A DNA stretch of 64,000 nucleotides from a virus (Duplodnaviria > Heunggongvirae > Uroviricota > Caudoviricetes). The DNA lies in IMG/VR virus record IMGVR_UViG_3300017655_000275; one strand, given 5' to 3'. The translations under genes were made by a program, and so were the position numbers. Under the pieces are notes generated by a model that worked only from the letters and a program-made list of their open reading frames with translations, searched no databases and was not told the origin of the DNA. Numbering within the stretch: position 1 is the first letter of the stretch; the number at the start of each line of letters is the position of its first letter. Shown here piece after piece: positions 21,004-54,602 of this stretch.

Positions 21004-22002
21004 TCAGATGAATTCGAGACCATTCCTGGTCAGAAGGCCTTTGTCGATCTCATCCAGCAAGCGGAACCGCAGATGGTTCGGACCCGCGTAGAATGCCGGG
21101 TTCTTGCGCTTGAACCAGGTTCCTCCCAGCCTCGCATATGCGAGGTCGAACACCCGTTTGGCATGACCGTCTTCACCAAAGGTCTTTGCCATCCAGTCGC
21201 CTGGATCTCTGGAGAGATCGTCCTGGTGCACCAGGATCTGATGCATCATCAAATCCCATTCGAGATAGCTGCACCCGATCTGAGCTTCGTCGCCGGCGTC
21301 GATGCCAAGACCGTCGGTTGGCGTCGCCCGCCACGTCCGCTCGGGGACGCCGATTTCCCTGGACATGGCAGGAACTTCCCAGGACTTCAGGAAGCCCTGA
21401 AGGGGGGAAATATCACCCACATCGCCGTGCAATGTCCAGAAACCGGCCGTCAGTTCGGAGAAGTTATCCGTCGATGCCACGACGGCACCGGTCGATCTGG
21501 CCCGATCGTAGAGCGTGATCATCCGCAGCCTCGCGCGGATATTGCCTCGCCGGATCCTGGCATCCTTGCTGTCATCCAGGATGCTGGGATCGCTGGCCGA
21601 TTGCGCCTCCAGCATTGCATCATACATCGGGCTGAGATCAAAACCGATATGAGCGATGCCGGCTGCCTCGCAGGCCTCCACCCCACGCTCGGTTTCGATG
21701 GGTTCCTGGTGGATCGGCAAGGTCATGCCCGTGACCTGCCAGCCCGCCTTGGCAAAAAGATGCGCGGTCAGAGCGGAATCCACGCCGCCAGACATGCCGA
21801 GCCAGACTTTCGAGACGCCGTGCGTGGTTCTGTAGAGCTCGAGCTCATGAACCAGGTTGTCGACATCGGTCGCCAACTGAGGAACCGCGCGGAAGCCGCC
21901 ATTGGTAATCCAGTGGTCGAATCTCATCTGAAACCAGGGGGACAGTTGAGGCCTGGCGGCTTGACGGGACAGGTCAAGAACGTCTTCCTTGAGATCGCGC
22001 AT
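21004..22002 (-). CDS. nadE: NH3-dependent NAD(+) synthetase NadE (no glutaminase domain)
   Basis: LGMSGGVDSA, GNIRARLRM, STDNFSE...GFWTLHGD, PTDGL. Confidence 0.92.
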   Translation of the reverse strand: MRDLKEDVLDLSRQAARPQLSPWFQMRFDHWITNGGFRAVPQLATDVDNLVHELELYRTTHGVSKVWLGMSGGVDSALTAHLFAKAGWQVTGMTLPIHQEPIETERGVEACEAAGIAHIGFDLSPMYDAMLEAQSASDPSILDDSKDARIRRGNIRARLRMITLYDRARSTGAVVASTDNFSELTAGFWTLHGDVGDISPLQGFLKSWEVPAMSREIGVPERTWRATPTDGLGIDAGDEAQIGCSYLEWDLMMHQILVHQDDLSRDPGDWMAKTFGEDGHAKRVFDLAYARLGGTWFKRKNPAFYAGPNHLRFRLLDEIDKGLLTRNGLEFI

Positions 22003-22017
22003 GGGATGTATCCTTTC

Positions 22018-22045
22018 CTACTTATAGTCAATCTACAAATAAGTC
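22018..22045. promoter_or_regulatory. Putative NAD-regulon operator upstream of nadE, overlapping a TTCACA-N17-TAGATT promoter on the minus strand
   Basis: CTACTTATAGTCAATCTACAAATAAGTC; 24/28 identical to the site upstream of pncB. Confidence 0.75.
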
Positions 22046-22078
22046 GGACATCTGTGAAGAGGGAAAATTCCCATCGAC

Positions 22079-33267: not shown

Positions 33268-34458
33268 TCATGGCCTGTTCATCGCCGAAATCCGGTCCAT
33301 CGCCTCGCCGACGGGCAGGCTATCCTTGCGGCCGCCCATCTGCAGCATCAGCTTGCCTTCGGACATCTCCCTTGCACCGATCACCACAGAGACGGGAATA
33401 TTCCTCTCATGCACGGAGACCAGTCTGCGGCCAAGGCTTTCGGCGCCATCAAAGACCCGCGCCTGCAGACCGGCTTGCTCAAGACGGGAACAAATCGACC
33501 TGGCTTCCTGTTGTTGCCCCTCTCCGATCGGAAGAACCGCAACCTGCTCGGGCGCAAGCCAGAAGGGCAGACATCCCTCATGATGCTCGAGAAGGATGCC
33601 GATCATGCGGCCCATCGATCCGAGAACGGCATGATGCAGCATGACCGGCACCTGGCGTTCATTGTCGCTGTCCACATACGAGGCTCCCAGCCGCCCGGGC
33701 AGAACCATGTCAAGCTGGATGGTCCCGCACTGCCATGAGCGGCCCTGTCGATCCTTCAGCGCGAATTCGAGCTTGGGCCCGTAGAATGCGCCTTCTCCCG
33801 GCTGGATCTCCGGCTCAAGCCCGCAGGATCTCGCTGCAGCCAGAAGTTGGCTTTCGGCCTGATCCCAATCCTTGTCGGAACCGGCCCGGATATTCGGGCG
33901 CAGGGAAAGCGCTACGGAAAACTCATCGAAGCCGAGGCTCCTGTAAACTTCCGAAAGCATGTCGACGAAGCGCTTGACCTCGCTCTCGACCTGCCGGGGC
34001 ATCAGCAGAACATGGGCATCATCCTGCTCGAAGGCCCGGGTCCGCATGAGACCGTGCATGGAGCCGGAAGGTTCGTCGCGATGGCAACTCCCGAACTCCG
34101 CATATCGGACCGGAAGGTCGCGCCATGAATGATGCCCATGATTGAAGATCTGGATGTGACAAGGGCAGGACATGGGCTTCAGCGCCATCTCGCGCCCGCC
34201 GTCCTTCGCTGGCATCGCGAACATGTTTTCGCCGAACTTCTCCCAATGTCCGGATTTCTCCCAGAGGGAGCGCGGAAGAAGCTGGGGCGAGCGGACTTCC
34301 TGATAACCAAGGCTGCGCATCCAGCTCCGGATATGCTCTTCGAGCTTGCGGTAGATACGCAAGCCCGGCCCATGCCAATAAACCATCCCGGGCGCGTCCT
34401 CCTCCATATGATAGAGGCCGAGCCTTCGTGCGATGATGCGATGATCGTTCTGTTCCAT
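33268..34458 (-). CDS. thrS: Short threonyl-tRNA synthetase (catalytic and anticodon domains, no N-terminal editing domains)
   Basis: LKPMSCPCH, FGSCHRDEPSG...RTRAFEQDDAH, GAFYGPKL, WQCGTIQLD. Confidence 0.95.
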   Translation of the reverse strand: MEQNDHRIIARRLGLYHMEEDAPGMVYWHGPGLRIYRKLEEHIRSWMRSLGYQEVRSPQLLPRSLWEKSGHWEKFGENMFAMPAKDGGREMALKPMSCPCHIQIFNHGHHSWRDLPVRYAEFGSCHRDEPSGSMHGLMRTRAFEQDDAHVLLMPRQVESEVKRFVDMLSEVYRSLGFDEFSVALSLRPNIRAGSDKDWDQAESQLLAAARSCGLEPEIQPGEGAFYGPKLEFALKDRQGRSWQCGTIQLDMVLPGRLGASYVDSDNERQVPVMLHHAVLGSMGRMIGILLEHHEGCLPFWLAPEQVAVLPIGEGQQQEARSICSRLEQAGLQARVFDGAESLGRRLVSVHERNIPVSVVIGAREMSEGKLMLQMGGRKDSLPVGEAMDRISAMNRP

Positions 34459-41295: not shown

Positions 41296-41775
41296 ATGAC
41301 AAGGCACGCCAATACGAATTCCTCATTGATCGCCGAAAACCGGCGTGCCCGTTTCGATTATCATATCGAGGATGACCTGGAGGCCGGGATCATCCTGCAC
41401 GGGTCCGAGGTCAAGTCGCTTCGCGCCGGCGGCACCAATATTGCCGAGAGCTATGCATCTGTCGAGGGTGGGGAGCTTTGGCTCGTAAATGGCTATATCG
41501 CCCCCTACAAGATGTCGGGGGTCTGGGGGCACGAAGAGCGCAGACGCCGCAAGCTGCTGGTCTCGCGCAAAGAGCTGGCGCGTCTCTGGAACGCGACCCA
41601 GCGGGAAGGCATGACGATCGTTCCGCTGAAAATGTATTTCAGTGAACGCGGTGTTGCGAAAATCCGCATCGGAATCGCCAAGGGGAAGAAGCTTGCCGAC
41701 AAGCGCGAGACCAGCGCCAAACGTGACTGGAACCGGCAGAAGGCACGCCTGTTGAAAGAGGGTGCCCGCGGATAA
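41296..41775 (+). CDS. smpB: SsrA-binding protein SmpB
   Basis: [38 protein letters not shown]. Confidence 0.97.
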
Positions 41776-41988: not shown

Positions 41989-42070
41989 AAGCCCTGATCG
42001 ATCGGTTCCAGCAATCCACAGGTAAGCAAGGGTTTAGGTTCAATCCTTAAACATATTCGCATGAATGGCG

Positions 42071-42099
42071 TTGCGGCAATCGGGCCACGGGAATACAAT
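42071..42099 (+). promoter_or_regulatory. sigma70 promoter of the PARP gene
   Basis: TTGCGG-N17-TACAAT. Confidence 0.7.
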
Positions 42100-42136
42100 C
42101 CACAAGGACTTTCATTTCAGGGACGTATTTCTTCTC

Positions 42137-43426
42137 ATGCAGGGTTCTTCCGAGACAAAGATGTTCATCCTTACGGATGCGAAAAATAACAACAACAAAT
42201 TTTGGGAGATCTCCATCGACGGATCCGGAACCGTTGCGACCCGGAACGGGCGGGTCGGATCCAAAGGTCAGTCTCGCGTTCTTGGGAATGGTCGCAGGCT
42301 GTTCGATTCCAAGATCCGGGAAAAGGAACGCGGAGGCTACAAACCGATCGATCTCGTCGGGGCGCCGGCATCAGCAGCCAATATCAATGGCGAGGCCTTG
42401 GTGACGGCCGCGGAAGAACAGATCGGGCAGGGCAATCCGGTGGTGATCGGGCTCGTCCGCGAGCTTGCGAAAATCAACAGGCATCAGATTCTTGCCGCAT
42501 CCGGCGGTCAGATGGATCTCGACCTCTCAACTGGAGTCATCAGCACGCCAGTAGGTGTCGTCACCGGCGAAAACGTGGCAAGGGCCCGGGCCATGCTGCA
42601 GGGCTTCGAAGGTTTTGTTTCCGCCGGAGACTTCGACAATCCGGCCTTCATACACCCGCTCGAACAATATCTGATGCTGGTGCCGCAGAAGGTTGGATCC
42701 CGCCGCGGTTGGCATCGTGATTTCATCCGCGGGCTGGAAGATCTGGTGAAGCAATCCTCTCTTCTGGATCAACTCGAATCCTCCATCGAGATCGCCGAGC
42801 AGCGCGTCAAAGACGCGAAGATGGCGGGCGACAAGCCGGAAATCGAAAAGATCTTCGATGTGGCAATGCGGATTTCCGAGGATGGAAGGCTCCGCAACCA
42901 GATCCAGGACTTCTTCGAGAAGGGCCGGCAGCGCATGCATGCGTCCCGAGATCTGAAAATGGCCAGGATCTTCGAGGTGTCTCTTGGAGGCATGAACAGG
43001 GAATTTGCGGAAGATGGAGAGACGGTCGGCGGTATCCGTCAGCTCTGGCACGGCACGCGCGCACATAACCTGATTTCGATCCTGAAAAGCGGATTGATCA
43101 TTCCGAAATCGAACGGCTCGATTCATGTCACTGGACGCATGTTCGGCGACGGCCTCTACTTCAGCGACCAGAGCACCAAATCGCTGAATTATGCCTACGG
43201 ATACTGGGATCGAGGTGCCAGGGACGACCGGTGCTACATGTTCCTGGCGGATGTGGCGATGGGTAAGTCCTGGCACCCCAATCGGACAGGATCAAACGTG
43301 CGGCCGCCTGCCGGCTATGACAGTGTCTTCGCCCGTGGCGGCCAGGACATCGTCCACAACAACGAGATGATCGTCTACAGGACCAGCCAGGCGAAGCTCA
43401 ATTACCTCGTCGAATTCGAAGCATGA
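42137..43426 (+). CDS. PARP-like ADP-ribosyltransferase (WGR - helical regulatory domain - ART)
   Basis: NNKFW...RNGRVGSKGQ (WGR); LWHGT, GRMFGDGLYF, KSLNY, NNEMIVY (H-Y-E triad). Confidence 0.92.
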   Translation: MQGSSETKMFILTDAKNNNNKFWEISIDGSGTVATRNGRVGSKGQSRVLGNGRRLFDSKIREKERGGYKPIDLVGAPASAANINGEALVTAAEEQIGQGNPVVIGLVRELAKINRHQILAASGGQMDLDLSTGVISTPVGVVTGENVARARAMLQGFEGFVSAGDFDNPAFIHPLEQYLMLVPQKVGSRRGWHRDFIRGLEDLVKQSSLLDQLESSIEIAEQRVKDAKMAGDKPEIEKIFDVAMRISEDGRLRNQIQDFFEKGRQRMHASRDLKMARIFEVSLGGMNREFAEDGETVGGIRQLWHGTRAHNLISILKSGLIIPKSNGSIHVTGRMFGDGLYFSDQSTKSLNYAYGYWDRGARDDRCYMFLADVAMGKSWHPNRTGSNVRPPAGYDSVFARGGQDIVHNNEMIVYRTSQAKLNYLVEFEA

Positions 43427-43440
43427 AAGGAATGTGAAAA

Positions 43441-43971
43441 ATGGATTCTGGAAAGATCTTCAGTGCCGAGGTTGCACCTTCGCTCATCCTTATGGATGTC
43501 TTGGGGCGCCGCAATCCGGTCGTAACCGCGGAGCATGCGCTTTTCGCCCTCGACTATGCGAACAAGCTGCATGGATTGGGCGGTAAGGGGATCGCAAAGC
43601 GTGTGGATGATGATTCAGGAGTGCTGGACTATCGGGGGATGTTCATCCTGCATTATCGCTCTCGCGCAGGCAGAGCGACGAAGTCAGAGATCGCCCGTGT
43701 CGCACGGATCATTGCCTCCAGCCAGATCCGCAGGAACGATTGGCCGGTGGCCGGTGAAACGCTTTTCGTGACCGGGAGTCGCGCGCTCGTCTATCCCGAA
43801 ATCGCAGCCGTCGGCGCCTCGACCGTCCCGTTCCTTGTTTCGACCAGCATCTGGTATAACCACAACCGTGTCACCGAAGCTTTCCCGTCAACGAAGGCCC
43901 AGGAGCAGATGCTTCTCGAAGACATCAACTCCCGCCTGGATGACGGTGAGGTGTCCGTCCATCGCCAGTAA
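43441..43971 (+). CDS. Hypothetical protein co-transcribed with PARP
   Basis: 14 bp after the PARP stop; shared terminator downstream. Confidence 0.7.
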   Translation: MDSGKIFSAEVAPSLILMDVLGRRNPVVTAEHALFALDYANKLHGLGGKGIAKRVDDDSGVLDYRGMFILHYRSRAGRATKSEIARVARIIASSQIRRNDWPVAGETLFVTGSRALVYPEIAAVGASTVPFLVSTSIWYNHNRVTEAFPSTKAQEQMLLEDINSRLDDGEVSVHRQ

Positions 43972-46874: not shown

Positions 46875-47361
46875 CGGAAAGGTCGGTCCTTGGAAGAGGC
46901 ACGACAAGGATAATGGGAAAGGAAGAAAATCCAAAAGACAGACTGTAAACAGATGAAGAACAAAAAATGATCGTTGCACTTCTCACTAAACGAGAAAGAT
47001 AAATAAAAAATAGCAGTTCCACGCATGAGAAAAAATAAAATACCAAATACTGAACAATCCTCACCTGAGGTAATGGAAAAGAGATGATACGCCACTCTTC
47101 TGCATGGACAGGACATGTCGAAAGGTTGCCTCACCGGCAACAGCAGACAGACTTATCATCAAAATGTGGAAAAGTATTGTCCTCCCTCTTCGAAAAAGCT
47201 ACTCTGTATGCGAAAAGGTTCGATCGGCCGCCGGCTCGACCAGGAAACGGTCGAGATACCGGGCGCCGAGGAGCCGCAGGGCATGCGCGGTATTGGACAG
47301 CCCCTTCGTATACCAGACTTTCATGGATTTTCGGTTGCTCTCATTTGGAAAGGGTTGAGCT

Positions 47362-48207
47362 TCAGGGGGAAGGAGTTTCGGATTCTGGCTCCGGTATTCC
47401 GATCAGGGAAGCAAAGCGGCCGTCGTAGAGGCTAGCCCTGCCGTTTCCGCCGATCTCCCAGACCCGATAGCCGCGGCGATGAGCCATGCGGAGGAGCGAC
47501 CCGACAGGAAGGCGCTCCGCGATACCGTCAAATCCGAATCCTGGCGCATCTGAGGCCCGGAGTTCATCGCGGATCTGTCGGAGAGCGGACTGCTGCAGCT
47601 TCCATGTGATGTCGCGCGGCGTCAGGATAAGGATGAGCGCCATTTCCGTTCCATCGCCCCCGGTCAGAGGTCCGGAACCGGGATGTGTATAGCCACGGTA
47701 ATGACCGGTCATTCCGGTCATGTAGCGCAGATCGCTTGCGATGTCCCGTGGAGGCTCGGATCCCAGGATCCTCTTGACCTGGGCCAGTGGCATGGCGTCC
47801 CACCGTGATATCCCCGCAGCGGACGATCCGTCCAGCCAGGAATTCCACACCCTGACCGCAGGGTCGGGGTGATATGCCAAGCCCTCTTCCTCAAAGCCCT
47901 GCATCGGTCGGTGTCCGGGTGGCAGGGGAGCCAGGCTCGTGCGACCCTCGATGCCGTGCTCCAGGATGAGATCGGGACGATCCCAGACGAAATTGTAGGC
48001 GCTGGAAGTCAGGCTGATACCGACGCCCATTTCGCTGGCGAAGCGGTAAGCATGATCCCAGTCATCGACAGGGTTGTTGGTCTTGATGCGATGTTCACTG
48101 CCTCCCAGCCCATCGGGCACCAGGTGGATGCCACGATAGCTCTCCGGAACCCGGCTGTCGTAGTCGACGGTGAGAAGAAATGACTCCGGCGTCTTTTTCA
48201 GCGGCAT
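47362..48207 (-). CDS. Hypothetical protein; N-terminal domain shared with the PncA extension
   Basis: VDY...PESYRG...TNNPVDDW...SS...FVWDRP. Confidence 0.72.
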   Translation of the reverse strand: MPLKKTPESFLLTVDYDSRVPESYRGIHLVPDGLGGSEHRIKTNNPVDDWDHAYRFASEMGVGISLTSSAYNFVWDRPDLILEHGIEGRTSLAPLPPGHRPMQGFEEEGLAYHPDPAVRVWNSWLDGSSAAGISRWDAMPLAQVKRILGSEPPRDIASDLRYMTGMTGHYRGYTHPGSGPLTGGDGTEMALILILTPRDITWKLQQSALRQIRDELRASDAPGFGFDGIAERLPVGSLLRMAHRRGYRVWEIGGNGRASLYDGRFASLIGIPEPESETPSP

Positions 48208-48731
48208 GACATCGACCTCGCCTCCAGATAGCCCCTGATCCGGTCCAGGCCGCAAGAGCTGCCGGCAATCTCTCGAGGCTGGCAGCAAAGCACCGTATTG
48301 TATTTTTCCATCCAGGCGAGGATGCCCGCGGTGTCATCACCCAGAATTCCGCGAAGAAGCTCGGCGATCCTGATGATTTTGAGCTTGTCCTTCAGCGGAC
48401 GGAAATCCCCCGGCAGGCCAAGGGCATCGCGAGCCCTGAGGTAGGATTGTCGAATATCGCGAAGCCTGTTCAGGCCCATGGCGTCGAGATATTCTCCGCC
48501 GCAGCAATTATCATATGGGCAGGTCTCGTCGTCCTCGATTGCGCTTTCCCATTCGTGACGGCAGCGGGTGCAGCGATGGAGATGCTGATCGGGACCTCCG
48601 CCGGAATGCGGCTCGACATGGAGGACCTTCGCCCGAGCGGAGCAGCGCGGGCAATTGCGGAAGCTGTCGCGCGCAGTATCCCATGCGTCGAAGCCGATGC
48701 TTTCAAAAGCGGCACCCATCTCAGTTTCCAA
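48198..48731 (-). CDS. Zn-ribbon protein with C-terminal Xre/MbcA/ParS (DUF2384)-like antitoxin domain
   Basis: CPRC...CTRC; AWMEKYNTVLCCQPREIAGSSCGLDRIRGYLEA. Confidence 0.5.
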   Translation of the reverse strand: METEMGAAFESIGFDAWDTARDSFRNCPRCSARAKVLHVEPHSGGGPDQHLHRCTRCRHEWESAIEDDETCPYDNCCGGEYLDAMGLNRLRDIRQSYLRARDALGLPGDFRPLKDKLKIIRIAELLRGILGDDTAGILAWMEKYNTVLCCQPREIAGSSCGLDRIRGYLEARSMSCR

Positions 48732-49188
48732 TATTCATTGCGGTTTCTTCGTTGGGATTGAAATTCGGCGGCGCATGTGTCGGCATTTCCGTCCAGGCAA
48801 TTGGATCGACCGGAGTCCAGCGACCGAAGGCCATCCAATGAGCCGCATGGCTACCTTCCTGCGCCCACCGCATCTGCTTCTGACCCCAAGCCCCAAAATC
48901 GCCGATGATCCAGCGGCCATCCTTTGGGGCATCAGCCATGGTCTTCCAACAATCGCGTTGGTTCGACGTCGACATGACCAGATATGGTAGAACGGCACTC
49001 TCGCGCCAATGTTCTGCCGCAGCCATGAGTGGATCCGGGCTTGTCACTCCGGCCAGGGTCAAATCCCAGGACGCCCAGAATTTTCCTTCCTCGTGGCAAA
49101 TACTGAAAGACTTCCCCGTGATAGGACAGGTGGCGAATAGCGTGTCGCGCTGTTCCCACATGAGCGGTTTCAAACAGATTTCCGACAT
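48721..49188 (-). CDS. Phage-like protein with DUF551-like C-terminus
   Basis: WKTMADAPKDGRWII...PIAWTEMP. Confidence 0.6.
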   Translation of the reverse strand: MSEICLKPLMWEQRDTLFATCPITGKSFSICHEEGKFWASWDLTLAGVTSPDPLMAAAEHWRESAVLPYLVMSTSNQRDCWKTMADAPKDGRWIIGDFGAWGQKQMRWAQEGSHAAHWMAFGRWTPVDPIAWTEMPTHAPPNFNPNEETAMNIGN

Positions 49189-49193
49189 CTGTC

Positions 49194-49997
49194 TCAGTCT
49201 CCCAGACTCTTCGCGGTTTCATCAACGGGATCATAGGTGCGGAACTTGCCGTCATCGCGCAGGATCTGCATCTCACCGGTTGCTGTGTGGACCACCCTGG
49301 TTCCGACAGGGTGCTGCAAGGCCAGCGCCTGGAGAAGCGATTTGCAGCCTTGGGGAGCCGTGTGAACCTCGACCGGCACACGCATCCCGGGTGGGTAGAC
49401 CTGCTCGTAGAAACGGAAAAGCTTTTCGTCGACCTCTGCTTGCCAGTCGGGGTCACGCGCCTCGATCAACGCCCGCACCCTGCTGGACGAATATGCCTGG
49501 CCAAGAGTCCGGTCGGCAATATGGATGCGCCGTCCGGTAACGGCATCTTCCCAGACCTCAAACCCACCGCTGCTGTAGCTGGGCTCTCCTTCCAGGGAGC
49601 TGAAGTGACCTGTATACCAGCGGGCTTCCTGCTTCGATCCCGCATAGAAATCAGTCGGAGCCGGCAGGTGCTGCGACCGGATCTTCGACAGGACATAATC
49701 GATCCACTCATCCGGGTGATCGGTCGCCCCGAGATCCTGCAGAAAGACATGGCTGAACTTGTCGCCCCAGAGAATCTCATGAGCCGCCAGTTTCTCTTCT
49801 GCCGTGAGGGGATTCCCCGGCTGCCGAAACTTGTCGCAGGATCCAAAGCCGATGATGTTGAACCCGTTGTCCCGGATCATCCTCTGCTTCAGAACGGCAT
49901 GGCCGTGGTGCTCGATCTGGCCACGGGTGATCATCAGGCCAACCCTGTTCTCGATCCGGTTCGACATTTCAGCCATGATATCTTTTTGAAACTTCAC
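49194..49997 (-). CDS. nadM: NadM-like NMN/NaMN adenylyltransferase
   Basis: TRGQIEHHGH (HxGH), IIGFGS, NPLTAEEK, SSSRVR; coupled to nudF. Confidence 0.75.
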   Translation of the reverse strand: MKFQKDIMAEMSNRIENRVGLMITRGQIEHHGHAVLKQRMIRDNGFNIIGFGSCDKFRQPGNPLTAEEKLAAHEILWGDKFSHVFLQDLGATDHPDEWIDYVLSKIRSQHLPAPTDFYAGSKQEARWYTGHFSSLEGEPSYSSGGFEVWEDAVTGRRIHIADRTLGQAYSSSRVRALIEARDPDWQAEVDEKLFRFYEQVYPPGMRVPVEVHTAPQGCKSLLQALALQHPVGTRVVHTATGEMQILRDDGKFRTYDPVDETAKSLGD

Positions 49998-50623
49998 ACG
50001 CCCACCTTCTGATTTCCCGCCGTGATCCGAAGCTCGGGCGCCAGAACCTCCAGACGGAACAGCAGCGTCGTCAGGTAGCCGTTCGCGGGCTTTCTCCGGA
50101 TCTCCTCCATGGCCTGCTGTCGCGGCATGGCGCGAGGCAGCGTGTATTCCGCCTCTGAAGCCAGGCTGCGGATGGTATTCTCCACCTCCGACAGATCGGC
50201 TTTCGCGATGAACAGGTGAACCATCTCGCTCGTGCCACCAGGGCTCGGGAAGATCGTCACTTTGTCGATGATCTGCTCGGCCGCCAGTTCGAGACCGGCC
50301 TCTTCCTGCGCTTCGCGCAGAACGCAGAGCAAGGGCTCCTCGCCGGGCTCAACCGAGCCCGCAACGATGCCAAGGCTCCAGCAATCGTCACCGTCGAGAC
50401 CTGCAGCGAGATGTCCGATGCGGAATTCCTCTACGGTCAGCACGGCGTCCATCGACGGATCGTAGACCAGGATCGCAGCCGATTGACCGCGTTCGAAAAC
50501 TTCCCTGGTGATCGGTTCCGACAGGGTGCCGTCGCCGATGTCATGACGAACCGTGTAGCGATCCATCTTGAAAAATCCGTCATAGGCGCGCTCACGGGAG
50601 ATGACTTCGACTTCCTTTGCCAT
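49994..50623 (-). CDS. nudF: ADP-ribose pyrophosphatase (Nudix) NudF
   Basis: REVFERGQSAAILVYDP; Nudix box GSVEPGEEPLLCVLREAQEEAG; SPGGTSE. Confidence 0.9.
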   Translation of the reverse strand: MAKEVEVISRERAYDGFFKMDRYTVRHDIGDGTLSEPITREVFERGQSAAILVYDPSMDAVLTVEEFRIGHLAAGLDGDDCWSLGIVAGSVEPGEEPLLCVLREAQEEAGLELAAEQIIDKVTIFPSPGGTSEMVHLFIAKADLSEVENTIRSLASEAEYTLPRAMPRQQAMEEIRRKPANGYLTTLLFRLEVLAPELRITAGNQKVGV

Positions 50624-50633
50624 GAAAGGCTCC

Positions 50634-51185
50634 TCAGTTTCTGGTGCCGTAAACAGCTTCAAGCGCGTGCAGGCAGGCGTTTGAAACCGCAATGACATCA
50701 GGATGCAGGTTGGGCTTCTGTGCTGTTCCGCCGGACGCAATGAAATTCCGGGCACCTGCATGAATGACAGAAAAAATCTCACCGTTTCCTGCAAGCCCGC
50801 AGGAGATGCTGCCGCGCGATGTCTCGATGGTGGCCGCATGGGTCAGGTCTGCGACCCTGTCTCCACTTTCCCGGCGGGGGAAATCATGGATTTCCAATGC
50901 CGATCTGGAAATCGGGCTCATGGCTTCCCGGACAACGGAAGTGATGAATGCGGCAGGATCGTTTGTCCCTCGCTGAGCGCCTTGCGCATAGGGAGACAGG
51001 CCCTCAAGGCTGATGGCGACGATCCCTTTTGTCGCGACTTTCCCGATATTGTAGCTCTGGCTGAAGGCGAATGCCGAGAACGCGAACAGCCCCAGCACGG
51101 CTACGACGAGAAGGGGCCGGGGAGAAGCCTGTCCGTTACCATCCGGGCCGTAACGGAATCCGGGGTCGCTGAGTTGATGTTTCAT
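50634..51185 (-). CDS. Hypothetical membrane-anchored or secreted protein
   Basis: Hydrophobic LLVVAVLGLFAFSAFAFS near the N-terminus. Confidence 0.65.
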   Translation of the reverse strand: MKHQLSDPGFRYGPDGNGQASPRPLLVVAVLGLFAFSAFAFSQSYNIGKVATKGIVAISLEGLSPYAQGAQRGTNDPAAFITSVVREAMSPISRSALEIHDFPRRESGDRVADLTHAATIETSRGSISCGLAGNGEIFSVIHAGARNFIASGGTAQKPNLHPDVIAVSNACLHALEAVYGTRN

Positions 51186-51241: not shown

Positions 51242-51730
51242 TTACCGTTTGAGAGCCGGCAGTTGCAGCATGAGGCTGATGGCTTCATCCTCATCATTGA
51301 AGACTGGAACACCGAAGCGACGTGCCGTGACCGCGATATTTCCGTATCGCATGTAGTCGCGATCCGCCTGGATGACGATCGGCTTTCCCGATCCGAAGCA
51401 GATGCCCATTTCCAGCATGGACACGATCGCCATCGTTTCCCCGCCGCAGAGCCGGAAAAACACGGCATCGGCGCGCTGGATATTCTCCAGCTCCCAGGTG
51501 ACCTGCTGGTTGAACACTGTCCCCGGTGTCGGATCCTGGTCCAGGTCGGCATCCCAGTCGTCGCGGCGAGGGTCGAAGACATTGATGCCGGAACTGATGA
51601 AGCGTTCGGCGACGCGCGGCTGCCAAAGCTCCGCGCGCCCCATTTCAATCGAACCGGCGATGAAGACGAACCGGCCTGGAAGATCTGCCGGCGGCACATC
51701 GGGGCTGCGGAAGAGCCGTCCGGAGATCAT
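51242..51730 (-). CDS. Nucleoside 2-deoxyribosyltransferase-like (NDT fold) protein
   Basis: FIAGSI, VFDPRRDDW, QVTWELENIQRAD, SMLEMG. Confidence 0.8.
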   Translation of the reverse strand: MISGRLFRSPDVPPADLPGRFVFIAGSIEMGRAELWQPRVAERFISSGINVFDPRRDDWDADLDQDPTPGTVFNQQVTWELENIQRADAVFFRLCGGETMAIVSMLEMGICFGSGKPIVIQADRDYMRYGNIAVTARRFGVPVFNDEDEAISLMLQLPALKR

Positions 51731-52671
51731 GCGAACAGGACTCCCGCGTCTTTCATGGCCTCGACCTGGCTGGTTACGGTGTCATCCGAAATGCCACGAC
51801 AGGCATCCAGGATAACCACTGCCTCGAAGCCCGCGTCCCGTGCGTCGAGAGCCGAATAGGCGACGCAATAGTCGAGCGCCAGGCCGGCGAACCAGACGCG
51901 TTCGATACCGCGTTCCTTCAGCCAGGCCGCCAGGCCGGTGGTGGTCTTGCGGTCGTTCTCCATGAAAGCCGAATAGCTGTCGATCTCCGGGTTCATACCC
52001 TTGCGAATGATGAGCTGCGCGGCTTTGAGGATATCCGGGTGAAGGTCGAATTCCGCCCCGTCCTCGCCCTGGACACAGTGCTGGGGCCAGAGAACCTGAG
52101 CCCCATAGGGAAGCTCGATGGTCTGGAACGGCACCTTCCTGTCATGGCTGCTCGCAAAGCTGGAGTGATCGGCAGGGTGCCAGTCCTGGGTCAGGACGAT
52201 GGTCCCGAACTTGACCGCAGCTTCCTCCAGCGCACCCATGATCCGGTCACCCTCGGGAACGGCAAGGTTGCCGCCGGGCAAGAAGTCGTTCTGGACGTCG
52301 ATGACGATCAGGGCGTCACGCGGTCCGATCTCATTCATGTTCACCTTTTCCATTTCCGGTTTTCCTTCATTTTGGCGTTTGTCATCTGGATCAGGAACGA
52401 TGATTTCGCGGTTTCGTTCGTCCAGGATCATCATCCATCCAGGCACATCCCAGAGGAAATGAGTGATGCTGCTTCCCTCGAGGACATACCCTTCAAAACC
52501 TGCTTTCCAGTCGAGATAAGTCGACCAGTCCTGCTCCGGATTTCCCGTGTTCCAGCGCAGGGCTTCACGGCGTTCCCGGCCTTCGAGAACGCTGATGACG
52601 ACCCCGCGATACGATCCGGGATCGCCTTCCACGTAGTCGATGTTGACGTGATGGGATGCAGACTTTCTCAT
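51727..52671 (-). CDS. pncA: Nicotinamidase PncA with about 105-aa unknown N-terminal domain
   Basis: IVIDVQNDF, TQDWHP, WPQHCV, IRKG, GLALDYCV. Confidence 0.93.
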   Translation of the reverse strand: MRKSASHHVNIDYVEGDPGSYRGVVISVLEGRERREALRWNTGNPEQDWSTYLDWKAGFEGYVLEGSSITHFLWDVPGWMMILDERNREIIVPDPDDKRQNEGKPEMEKVNMNEIGPRDALIVIDVQNDFLPGGNLAVPEGDRIMGALEEAAVKFGTIVLTQDWHPADHSSFASSHDRKVPFQTIELPYGAQVLWPQHCVQGEDGAEFDLHPDILKAAQLIIRKGMNPEIDSYSAFMENDRKTTTGLAAWLKERGIERVWFAGLALDYCVAYSALDARDAGFEAVVILDACRGISDDTVTSQVEAMKDAGVLFA

Positions 52672-53114
52672 GCGATTTCCGCTCCATATTTCGCCGCGGC
52701 GTGACGCTGGGACACGAGATCGGACGATCTCAAGTCCTCACGGAATGCTGTGCCCATCTTCGCTACCCTGTAGGCGAGGCGGCCGTTGAAATAGACGCAG
52801 GCGGCATTCTCATGCATGACCACGACGGTCGGCGCCGTGCTGAAGGCCTGGCCGGCGACACCGCCGCCGGCGTCCATGCCACCCGCGGTATTGGGCCAGT
52901 TCTGGCTGAACACCCGGTAATCGAGGCTATCCTCGTTGGGACGGGTGATCCGCTTCCTGCCCTGCCATTCATGGGTCACGTCCGGGAGGTCGAAATCCCT
53001 CGCCTTGACCCAGGCAGTCGACAGGGCGAGGATTGGATGGCCGATGTTCATGAAGTTTGCCTCGTTCCTGAAATCTCCCCACCAGCAGATCTGGCGGGGA
53101 GTATAGGGCATCAC
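52668..53114 (-). CDS. Hypothetical protein inside the NAD cluster
   Basis: 4-bp overlaps with both pncB and pncA. Confidence 0.75.
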   Translation of the reverse strand: MMPYTPRQICWWGDFRNEANFMNIGHPILALSTAWVKARDFDLPDVTHEWQGRKRITRPNEDSLDYRVFSQNWPNTAGGMDAGGGVAGQAFSTAPTVVVMHENAACVYFNGRLAYRVAKMGTAFREDLRSSDLVSQRHAAAKYGAEIA

Positions 53115-54475
53115 ACGATGACCGGCGCATTCTCGACACCTTCGGTGCCGAAGACGCCGCGGTAGAACTCGACCTCGGTTTCCGAACCGGTCGCCTTCGT
53201 GAAATTGTCCGAAAGCTTGACCGCCGAGATCCAGGGCGCGTTACGGCCGCGCTTCACGGCCGAAACCTTGCAAACGACCGAGATCGGATCGAGGGCGTCG
53301 CCGCCGCGGGGATCGCACCCCCTGAAGTCGTTGGTCGCCAGAGTCCCCCAGCCATAGCCTTCCCGGATCCGCCCGCGGAACCGGTCATGCAGGGCGATCA
53401 TCTGATCGACATCGAGCCCGTCGGAGAAGAGCTGCAGCCGGTCGCGCGGATCGCAGCCGATATTTTCCCAGAAAGCGATCTTCTCCTCCCCGGCGACGAA
53501 GGGATCCTTGCTGTCCTCGCGAAAGCCCGTCCATTTGCGGATTTCCGGGAACTCCTCCAGGGCATGCTTCAGGAACTGGGTCGATCCGAATGTGTCCGGC
53601 AGGGCCACCAACAAGTTCCCGCCATAGGTCTGCTGCCATTTGCGCAGAACGTCATACTGGCTGCGGAAAAGCTCGCGTTCGCCCATATGGCCTTCCTCGA
53701 TCGCCTTTGCGCGGGCCAATGCGGCCTCGACCATCGGCAATTCGTGAGCATTGGTCCCGATGGCCGGCAGGCCACGACGCATGGCATGAAGCGCGTTTGA
53801 GGTGCCGATGAAATTGGCGCCGAGCTCTTCCTGCATGGCTTCGATGGCCTGCTCCTGCCACAGAAAGCCGTGCCGGCGCCGGGTTCCGAATTCGGCGATG
53901 CCCGGAACGTTGGCGGCTTTCAGGCGCTTCATCTTGTCGACCAGTTTGGACAGCCCGTTGGCATAGAGCACGCGGAGCTGGTATTTCGACATGTCCGACA
54001 TGCCTGCCCGCGAACGCGCCTCGTTCAGGATCGACAGGACATAGATCTCCCAGAGCGTGCACTCGAACCAGGTGCCTTCGAATTCGATCTCATAATCACC
54101 ATCTGCACCGATAGAGATCCGGTAATCGCACAGTCGCAGATTTCGCAGTGCGTCGACGAATTCGCCTGAGAAAATGCCGCGCTGACCATAGAAGGTATTG
54201 CCCTGCAACCAGATCAACTCGGCCTCGCTGAAACGCAGGCCTTTCACGTGATCCAGCTGCGCTTTCAGATCCTTGATGGAGATGGCATCGGCCAGGAGCG
54301 CCTTGGCTGCGGAGCGGTTCTTGACGGCGAATTTCACATGCACATCAGGATGCCATTTCCAGATATAAGCGGCCATCAGCAGCTTGTAGAAATCCGTGTC
54401 GAGAAGCGAGCGGACATAGGGATCCAGCCGGAAATTGTGATTGTGAATGCGTTCGGCAAGATCGACGCTGGCCAT
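53111..54475 (-). CDS. pncB: Nicotinate phosphoribosyltransferase PncB
   Basis: SLLDTDFYKLLM, EFGTRRR, GTNAHE, LPDTFG, FSDGL, AVKLSDN. Confidence 0.96.
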   Translation of the reverse strand: MASVDLAERIHNHNFRLDPYVRSLLDTDFYKLLMAAYIWKWHPDVHVKFAVKNRSAAKALLADAISIKDLKAQLDHVKGLRFSEAELIWLQGNTFYGQRGIFSGEFVDALRNLRLCDYRISIGADGDYEIEFEGTWFECTLWEIYVLSILNEARSRAGMSDMSKYQLRVLYANGLSKLVDKMKRLKAANVPGIAEFGTRRRHGFLWQEQAIEAMQEELGANFIGTSNALHAMRRGLPAIGTNAHELPMVEAALARAKAIEEGHMGERELFRSQYDVLRKWQQTYGGNLLVALPDTFGSTQFLKHALEEFPEIRKWTGFREDSKDPFVAGEEKIAFWENIGCDPRDRLQLFSDGLDVDQMIALHDRFRGRIREGYGWGTLATNDFRGCDPRGGDALDPISVVCKVSAVKRGRNAPWISAVKLSDNFTKATGSETEVEFYRGVFGTEGVENAPVIV

Positions 54476-54537
54476 GTCTTCTTCCTCTCTCCCCAATGGG
54501 ATCATCATGTTCCTTGCAGGTCAGCCTTTTCGATCAA

Positions 54538-54565
54538 GACTTATTTGCATTTTGACTATAAGTAG
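54538..54565. promoter_or_regulatory. Putative NAD-regulon operator upstream of pncB, overlapping the -10 of TTGTCG-N16-TATAGT
   Basis: Minus strand CTACTTATAGTCAAAATGCAAATAAGTC; 24/28 identical to the nadE site. Confidence 0.75.
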
Positions 54566-54602
54566 ATCGCCCGCTCCGACAAGTCAAGCGCCATCGCAGC
54601 TG

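Follow-up and report, generated by a model that had tools for sequence, protein, structure and literature searches.

A 28-bp sequence stands upstream of nadE and again upstream of the pncB operon in the window, the whole stretch of 64,000 nucleotides that was analysed, and raises the question of which protein reads it there. An earlier note on this DNA had proposed an operator of the NrtR or NadQ type, with a left half that fits and a right half that deviates, and had found no gene for such a regulator in the window. Metagenomic contigs of 195 kb (ENA) and up to 229.7 kb include the window. The element is either a large phage or a megaplasmid, and a PHROGs comparison of ten unassigned ORFs did not separate the two.

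The paired sites and the salvage genes

Site S1 is located at 22018..22045 (+ strand), 15 nt upstream of the start codon of nadE, and site S2 at 54538..54565 (- strand), directly after an FtsH-like gene and upstream of the pncB operon; both are predicted NrtR-type operators. Both 28-mers were found where the earlier note had placed them. Written in one common orientation, they read CTACTTATAGTCAATCTACAAATAAGTC and CTACTTATAGTCAAAATGCAAATAAGTC and are identical at 25 of 28 positions by recount (24 had been given before). All three mismatches fall within the central 4 bp (TCTA against AATG), and the flanks are dissimilar over the 40 bp compared on each side. Such abrupt borders, and a centre with three of four positions differing, argue for selection on two blocks and not for a recent duplication. 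The pattern ACTTATAGTCAA-N4-CAAATAAGT, with up to 3 mismatches allowed, is matched in the 64 kb by S1 and S2 only, and in none of 100 dinucleotide-preserving shuffles of the window.

Inverted arms of the form ACTTAT-N13-ATAAGT are present in S1 and in S2 and overlap the predicted -10 boxes of nadE and pncB. By consensus scan only, the sigma-70-like promoter predicted for nadE (22030..22058, - strand) reads TTCACA-17-TAGATT, with the -10 hexamer inside S1, and that predicted for pncB (54555..54582, - strand) reads TTGTCG-16-TATAGT, with the -10 hexamer inside S2. Both genes lie on the - strand, and the two sites are oppositely oriented relative to them, which fits an operator that acts at the DNA level and is roughly symmetric, and not an RNA element. 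The arms, the -10 overlap (here by a simple scan) and the opposite orientation had all been pointed out in the earlier note and are borne out.

Inverted 28-mers that lie 32.5 kb apart, each with two arms around a short spacer, could also serve a site-specific recombinase as crossover points for inverting the intervening DNA. Tyrosine and serine recombinases, however, need identical crossover regions in the recombining partners, and of the central 4 bp here, 3 differ. Moreover, no recombinase gene is adjacent, both sites coincide with NAD-gene promoters, and a similar copy precedes a regulator gene, nrtR (see below). Inversion is considered a highly improbable explanation of the pair.

The gene nadE (21004..22002, - strand; gene call confirmed) encodes an NH3-dependent NAD+ synthase of 332 aa (PF02540, E 5.8e-36; TIGR00552, 121.8 bits), and pncB (53111..54475, - strand) encodes a nicotinate phosphoribosyltransferase (PF17767; PF04095; NF003704, 388.9 bits), so that the names used in the earlier note hold for both. 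The likely start of pncB is 54475, preceded by a GGAG/AGGA ribosome-binding site, whereas the gene caller sets it at 54505; S2 lies ~60 nt upstream of the likely start. In the gene calls of the public contig, pncB heads a run of ten genes on the - strand. The second gene, orf127 (52668..53051, - strand), has no Pfam or NCBIfam match, and pncA (51727..52671, - strand) encodes a nicotinamidase (NF008623, 194.5 bits, residues 118-310). PncA carries an N-terminal extension of ~115 aa (residues 1-115) without a family match, which is homologous (29% identity over 100 aa, E 3e-7) to the N-terminus, also without a family match, of orf281 (47362-48207), the last gene of the operon.

A nucleoside 2-deoxyribosyltransferase-like protein (51242..51730, - strand; PF15891 in Pfam) has as its best solved match the uncharacterised PDB entry 4MCJ (E 2e-17); it lies within the NAD salvage operon. 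The next gene, orf183 (50634..51185, - strand), encodes a protein with a hydrophobic N-terminal segment. It is followed by a gene for a NudF/YffH-type ADP-ribose pyrophosphatase of 209 aa (49994..50623, - strand; TIGR00052, 96.5 bits at a cut-off of 79.55; NF008003), of which a 281-aa ORF is an over-extension. This Nudix gene was considered as a source of the regulator and was rejected, its 209-aa product being of the enzyme type NudF/YffH and without a DNA-binding domain. A 267-aa NMNAT/NaMNAT-like adenylyltransferase (49194..49997, - strand) is assigned on weak evidence: NF002243 matches residues 20-70 at E 1.5e-5, PDB 1F9A matches at E 0.33, and a cytidylyltransferase-like fold is indicated by a feature score of 0.88 and a TM of 0.83 by matched cluster (Atlas).

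The tail of the operon (47362..49188, - strand) consists of the gene calls orf155, orf173 and orf281, with no assigned family. The product of orf173 (48198-48719) has a CxxC...CxxC zinc ribbon and no significant Pfam match; its C-terminal stretch resembles, by eye, the domain with which Xre/MbcA-type antitoxins bind their NAD+-targeting RES toxins. Among the unassigned ORFs of both operons, no DNA-binding family was detected at E up to 5. Together, PncA, PncB, the NMNAT-like adenylyltransferase and NadE would make up the full Preiss-Handler route from nicotinamide to NAD+, with the NMNAT step weakly supported.

The element-encoded NrtR and its operator type

No NrtR, NadQ, NiaR or NadR was found among the ORFs of the window in Pfam and NCBIfam scans or in precomputed Pfam tables for the called genes of 11-53 kb. 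Profile HMMs built from 28 NadQ proteins and from 32 winged-helix domains of alphaproteobacterial genomes gave no match in the six frames of the window (best E 0.17), as expected from the earlier note. Such a gene does exist on the same contig, 11.8 kb past the right end of the window. It encodes a canonical NrtR-family protein of 230 aa, is found on contig k141_25898 (the same 195-kb metagenomic contig), and lies at L049:3918-4610 (- strand), which corresponds to window-equivalent positions 75828-76520 (+ strand), the sequence L049 overlapping the last 4055 bases of the window with full identity. A gene for NadQ, which the earlier note had also proposed to look for, was not found on the ~100 kb inspected of this element of at least 195-230 kb: the six-frame HMM search of the window and of part of the flanks (L047 and L048) returned nothing better than E 0.04-0.17, and no NadQ-type protein is listed in the precomputed Pfam tables of the further flanks L049 and L050. 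The rest of the element may contain additional regulators and sites.

The protein (P0128) has NUDIX, AraR_C and NrtR_WHD domains. Its Nudix-like domain is N-terminal (PF00293, E 4.6e-10, residues 15-139) and is followed by the winged helix NrtR_WHD (PF21906, 68.3 bits at a cut-off of 27, residues 157-216; PF19368, 40.6 bits). The best solved match is the NrtR of Shewanella, 3GZ5, at E 7.2e-34 (query residues 6-220 against chain residues 14-229), whereas NadQ 7Q91 matches in the winged helix only. The Nudix box is degenerate (...AAWRILSEKAGL), with RILSEK where the Shewanella protein, SoNrtR, has RKLAEK, and two of the REUXEE glutamates are replaced; an impaired Nudix signature GX5EX7REUXEEXGU marks non-catalytic NrtRs (PMC4666351). 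Three of the four alignable ADP-ribose contacts of SoNrtR, namely Arg41, Lys76 and Arg98, are kept in an ungapped alignment and Asn43 is replaced by Ala, while the N-terminal residues that contact the adenine cannot be aligned confidently. The distance from nrtR to pncB is 21 kb and that to nadE 54 kb. NrtR and NadE were each found on 3 contigs, the longest of 229,702 bp for both, and their closest relatives are from Rhodobacterales, at 52-58% identity.

The operator type of this family was examined in 30 loci that encode NrtR homologues (up to 48% identity to the element's protein), drawn from 401 genomes of the phylum. In these loci pncB is beside nrtR in 10 cases and pncA in 7. When a single mismatch was allowed, 10 copies of the motif ACTTA-N15-TAAGT were counted within 7.8 kb of sequence upstream of nrtR, against one copy in the remaining 101.7 kb. 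The 5-mers most enriched upstream of the relatives' nrtR are ACTAA, ACTTA, CTTAG, TTGCA and AGTTG (P down to 5e-21), which jointly spell ACTTAGTTGCA; the count was made without reference to the window sites and is hence non-circular. Taken from the other strand, S2 has the right half ACTTATTTGCA and S1 the right half ACTTATTTGTA. As ACTTAGTTGCA matches ACTTATTTGCA, the half that the earlier note had taken to deviate is, on sequence grounds, the canonical half-site of this NrtR clade, and the left half, ACTTATAGTCA, is the variant that makes the window sites asymmetric.

A GT-N7-AC core is found in most NrtR groups, with those of Vibrio and Pseudomonas diverging (PMC2330246). In S1 and S2, only the left half has GT, at its positions 6-7, and CA takes the symmetric positions, so that the fit to the generic NrtR logo is lower; the fit to their own clade is undiminished, the sites of that clade also being without the core. 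With a PWM from eleven relatives' sites, S1 scored 25.0 bits and S2 24.0 bits against 20.9 for the best of 200 shuffles, a comparison with some circularity, since the outer arms had also served to select the relatives' sites.

A further site, S4, is the 25-mer ACTTATTCTCATTCTGACTTGAAGT, 49 bp upstream of the ATG of nrtR. It is identical to the reverse complement of S2 at 20 of 25 positions, also contains ACTTATAGTCA, and is the best match to S1/S2 in the 16.4 kb past the window, a level reached by none of 100 shuffles. With the PWM of the NrtR clade it scored 12.4 bits, and no consensus promoter was found at S4. A doubtful third site, S3 (ACTTATCATCAAAATGTGGAAAAGT; 47151..47175, + strand), is identical to S2 at 19 of 25 positions; it was not retained as a firm site, scoring 4.9 bits with the same PWM, and comparable matches are common in shuffles. 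S3 is contained in a gene-free, partly AT-rich gap of 487 bp (46875-47361) between the salvage operon and orf371. The eight half-sites of S1-S4 read ACTTATnnTCA, mostly with G before and C after, which gives the full motif GACTTATnnTCA-N3-TGAnnATAAGTC.

Could S1 and S2 instead be low-affinity operators for the NadQ of the host (COG4111, ATP-responsive), or for another host winged-helix regulator of the same family? The salvage genes of the element would then be under the NAD control of the host and not under their own. NadQ operators (PMC5343134) share the 21-bp geometry and the outer arms of the window sites, and the winged helix of NadQ is homologous. In particular, the TTAT-N13-ATAA geometry and the ACTTAT/ATAAGT arms equal the consensus of 26 sites collected beside nadQ genes in alphaproteobacteria, one of which is identical to S2 at 20 of 25 positions. 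With the PWM built from these 26 sites, S2, S3 and S1 are the three best positions of the window; their scores of 14.7, 8.8 and 7.7 bits, however, lie below the 22.7-37.4 bits of true NadQ sites, and NadQ was rejected as the cognate regulator on PWM strength. The published NadQ consensus is ttATRCTCannntGAGYATaa (PMC5343134); the window sites match it at 13-14 of 18 positions, and its CTCA/TGAG core is missing from them.

The nearest relatives of NadE and NrtR belong to Rhodobacterales, in which the NadQ regulon includes nadE (PMC5343134), but the element has its own NrtR with a matching site upstream, and of 41 genomes sampled from the family to which a Paracoccus genome belongs, only 2 encode an NrtR_WHD protein. 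Control by a host regulator is considered improbable. Of the two families named in the earlier note, NrtR is retained, with the matching site type beside homologous nrtR genes, and NadQ is dropped on its scores of 7.7-14.7 against 22.7-37.4 bits.

The closest named homologue of the element's NrtR is that of Defluviimonas salinarum (58%). A different palindrome, the perfect 12-bp AACTTGCAAGTT, lies upstream of its gene (L081:5900-6000), with no NAD genes nearby, and part of the NrtR clade may, judging from this locus, regulate something else.

Gene content of the element and occurrence of the site elsewhere

Further genes of the element include a type I-F CRISPR-Cas system that lacks cas1, an operon resembling Wadjet, and those for a DNA methylase, AbiE and LigA; IS605 elements are also present. 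The 10 kb to the left of the window encode DHFR, ThyA, HipBA and a Y-family polymerase. Translation genes include a class Ib aminoacyl-tRNA synthetase (PF00579; 58744-59790), ThrRS (33268-34458), SmpB (41296-41775) and a PTH2 peptidyl-tRNA hydrolase (L049:11541-11978). A WGR-PARP protein (PF05406 and PF00644) and a 176-aa partner are encoded on the + strand at 42065-43971, and the salvage operon ends 3.4 kb away. The WGR-PARP protein is likely a major NAD+ consumer of the element, and no NrtR-type site was found upstream of its gene.

The gene nrtR lies in an ADP-ribose-themed stretch, L049:2507-9438 (window-equivalent ~71.0-77.9 kb). Within a few kb it is accompanied by genes for two ART-PolyVal-like proteins (below the Pfam cut-off), a Macro-domain protein of 365 aa and a Tpt1/KptA RNA 2'-phosphotransferase, and an MmeI-like restriction-modification gene comes next. 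This neighbourhood may represent a further NAD+/ADP-ribose module controlled by NrtR as well.

A BLAST search found no near-identical relatives of the nadE region among plasmids and phages. The best non-self NadE proteins are 56-58% identical, and the NadE relatives of phages (44-51%) are without the site upstream. The nadE loci of Paracoccus and Falsiruegeria have contexts unrelated to that of the element, and no relatives of its IS605 TnpB were found among genome contigs. The exact site was found in no viral contig and in no genome contig. In metagenome contigs it occurs in 4 AT-rich contigs, apparently unrelated to NAD genes, once within a gene and three times in intergenic positions of related, Bacteroidota-like sequences. 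In these three related AT-rich contigs ACTTATAGTCAAAATAAAAATAAGT is intergenic (L001:1498-1522, L003:2845-2869 and L004:2931-2955) and lies ~30 bp before a TAnnTTTG-like promoter box, with flanks that are more diverged. These copies may represent an unrelated conserved site or chance.

Proposed regulation and comparison with known systems

Taken together, sequence comparison and analogy with characterised systems make it quite probable that S1 and S2 are operators of the element-encoded NrtR-family repressor, with ADP-ribose-released control of nadE, the pncB operon and nrtR itself. An NrtR dimer would bind the inverted repeat GACTTATnnTCA-N3-TGAnnATAAGTC of ~25-27 bp. As the repeat overlaps the -10 boxes, a dimer on S1 and S2 would cover them and block transcription of nadE and pncB, and with it the salvage route. 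The repressed set would comprise PncA, PncB, the NMNAT-like adenylyltransferase, NadE and the NudF-like ADP-ribose pyrophosphatase, and binding at S4 would provide autoregulation of nrtR. ADP-ribose, a product of NAD+ cleavage, would release NrtR from the DNA, and salvage would thus be on while NAD+ is being consumed, be it by the PARP, ADP-ribosyltransferases or ligase of the element itself or by an NAD+-depleting defence of the host.

Characterised NrtRs are dimeric repressors with sites that overlap or follow the promoter (PMC2330246), and by analogy with them we infer repression by the element's NrtR. ADP-ribose releases the NrtRs of Shewanella and Synechocystis from DNA, while the Corynebacterium homologue NdnR is NAD-responsive. 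The full-length similarity to SoNrtR and the three kept contacts point to ADP-ribose as the likely inducer here as well. SoNrtR (3GZ5, 3GZ6, 3GZ8), the ADP-ribose-dependent repressor of prs-nadV in Shewanella oneidensis, has a degenerate Nudix box as P0128 does; the identity between the two is moderate, Asn43 is Ala in P0128, and the predicted targets of P0128 form the Preiss-Handler route in place of prs-nadV.

With Asn43 replaced and the adenine contacts not alignable, the effector could differ. NrtR might bind the same sites and answer to another signal, such as NAD+ as a co-repressor, in the manner of Corynebacterium NdnR, or a derivative of ADP-ribose that the ART, Macro and Tpt1 enzymes encoded nearby produce. 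The family includes members that respond to ADP-ribose, to NAD or to L-arabinose, and nrtR lies within a few kb of the ART-PolyVal-like (below the Pfam cut-off), Macro and Tpt1/KptA genes. On the other hand, the nearest relative with a solved structure, SoNrtR, responds to ADP-ribose, and Arg41, Lys76 and Arg98 are kept; a different effector is held to be the less probable case, though a serious one. Under the preferred reading, with ADP-ribose as the signal, a tentative extension, more doubtful than the regulation itself, is that NrtR serves as a damage sensor. In that case a host NADase (TIR, SIR2 or similar) would split NAD+ to give nicotinamide and ADP-ribose, the latter of which would lift NrtR off S1, S2 and S4 and switch on an inducible, self-resetting counter-defence of the Preiss-Handler type, with the ADP-ribose cleared by the pyrophosphatase. 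If true, this would be a fourth route of NAD+ reconstitution beside NARP1-3.

NrtR regulons over pncA, pncB and nadE have long been known in bacteria, and it is the mobile-element setting that is new. The regulons described by Rodionov et al. in 2008 (nrtR<#>pncA-pncB(-nadE), #pncB ... #nadE; Pseudomonas, Vibrio, Blastopirellula and others; PMC2330246) have the same architecture of Nudix-like domain and winged helix, the same targets pncA, pncB and nadE, an operator on the promoter and a site at the regulator's own gene; the layout nrtR<#>pncA-pncB is given there for Pseudomonas and Vibrio. The operator type ACTTA-N15-TAAGT is shared with the bacterial loci that contain NrtR homologues. In contrast to the chromosomal regulons, that of the element is carried on mobile DNA of at least 195 kb, and the regulator gene is separated from pncB by 21 kb and from nadE by 54 kb, whereas bacterial NrtR genes are next to their targets. 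S1 and S2 also differ from bacterial NrtR sites in combining one canonical half with one variant AGTCA half.

NARP1-3 and the NAD-jumbo phages with Preiss-Handler genes, as described in the accessible text of PMC13464706 and PMC11662467, likewise have NAD+ synthesis genes of their own beside NAD+-consuming enzymes. What these parts of the two reports describe is enzymes, to which the present element adds NrtR and operators. An element-encoded NrtR with operators on salvage genes is not described in these parts of either report, and the word NrtR is absent from that text of PMC11662467. One survey mentions Nudix-HTH regulators in bacterial systems only.

Reconstitution of NAD+ by phages and plasmids has so far been described as a matter of enzyme sets. 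The present mobile element, at least 195 kb long, has a whole salvage regulon together with its own predicted sensor-repressor and three matching operators, and the same element is rich in NAD+ consumers and ADP-ribose processors (PARP-like, ART-PolyVal-like, LigA, Tpt1 and Macro proteins). For annotation, the locus teaches that the missing regulator of a regulon can sit tens of kilobases from its targets on a large element, and that an operator half that seems degenerate can be the canonical half of its clade. If the sensor is ADP-ribose-responsive like its closest characterised relative, the element would detect the breakdown of NAD+ and answer it.
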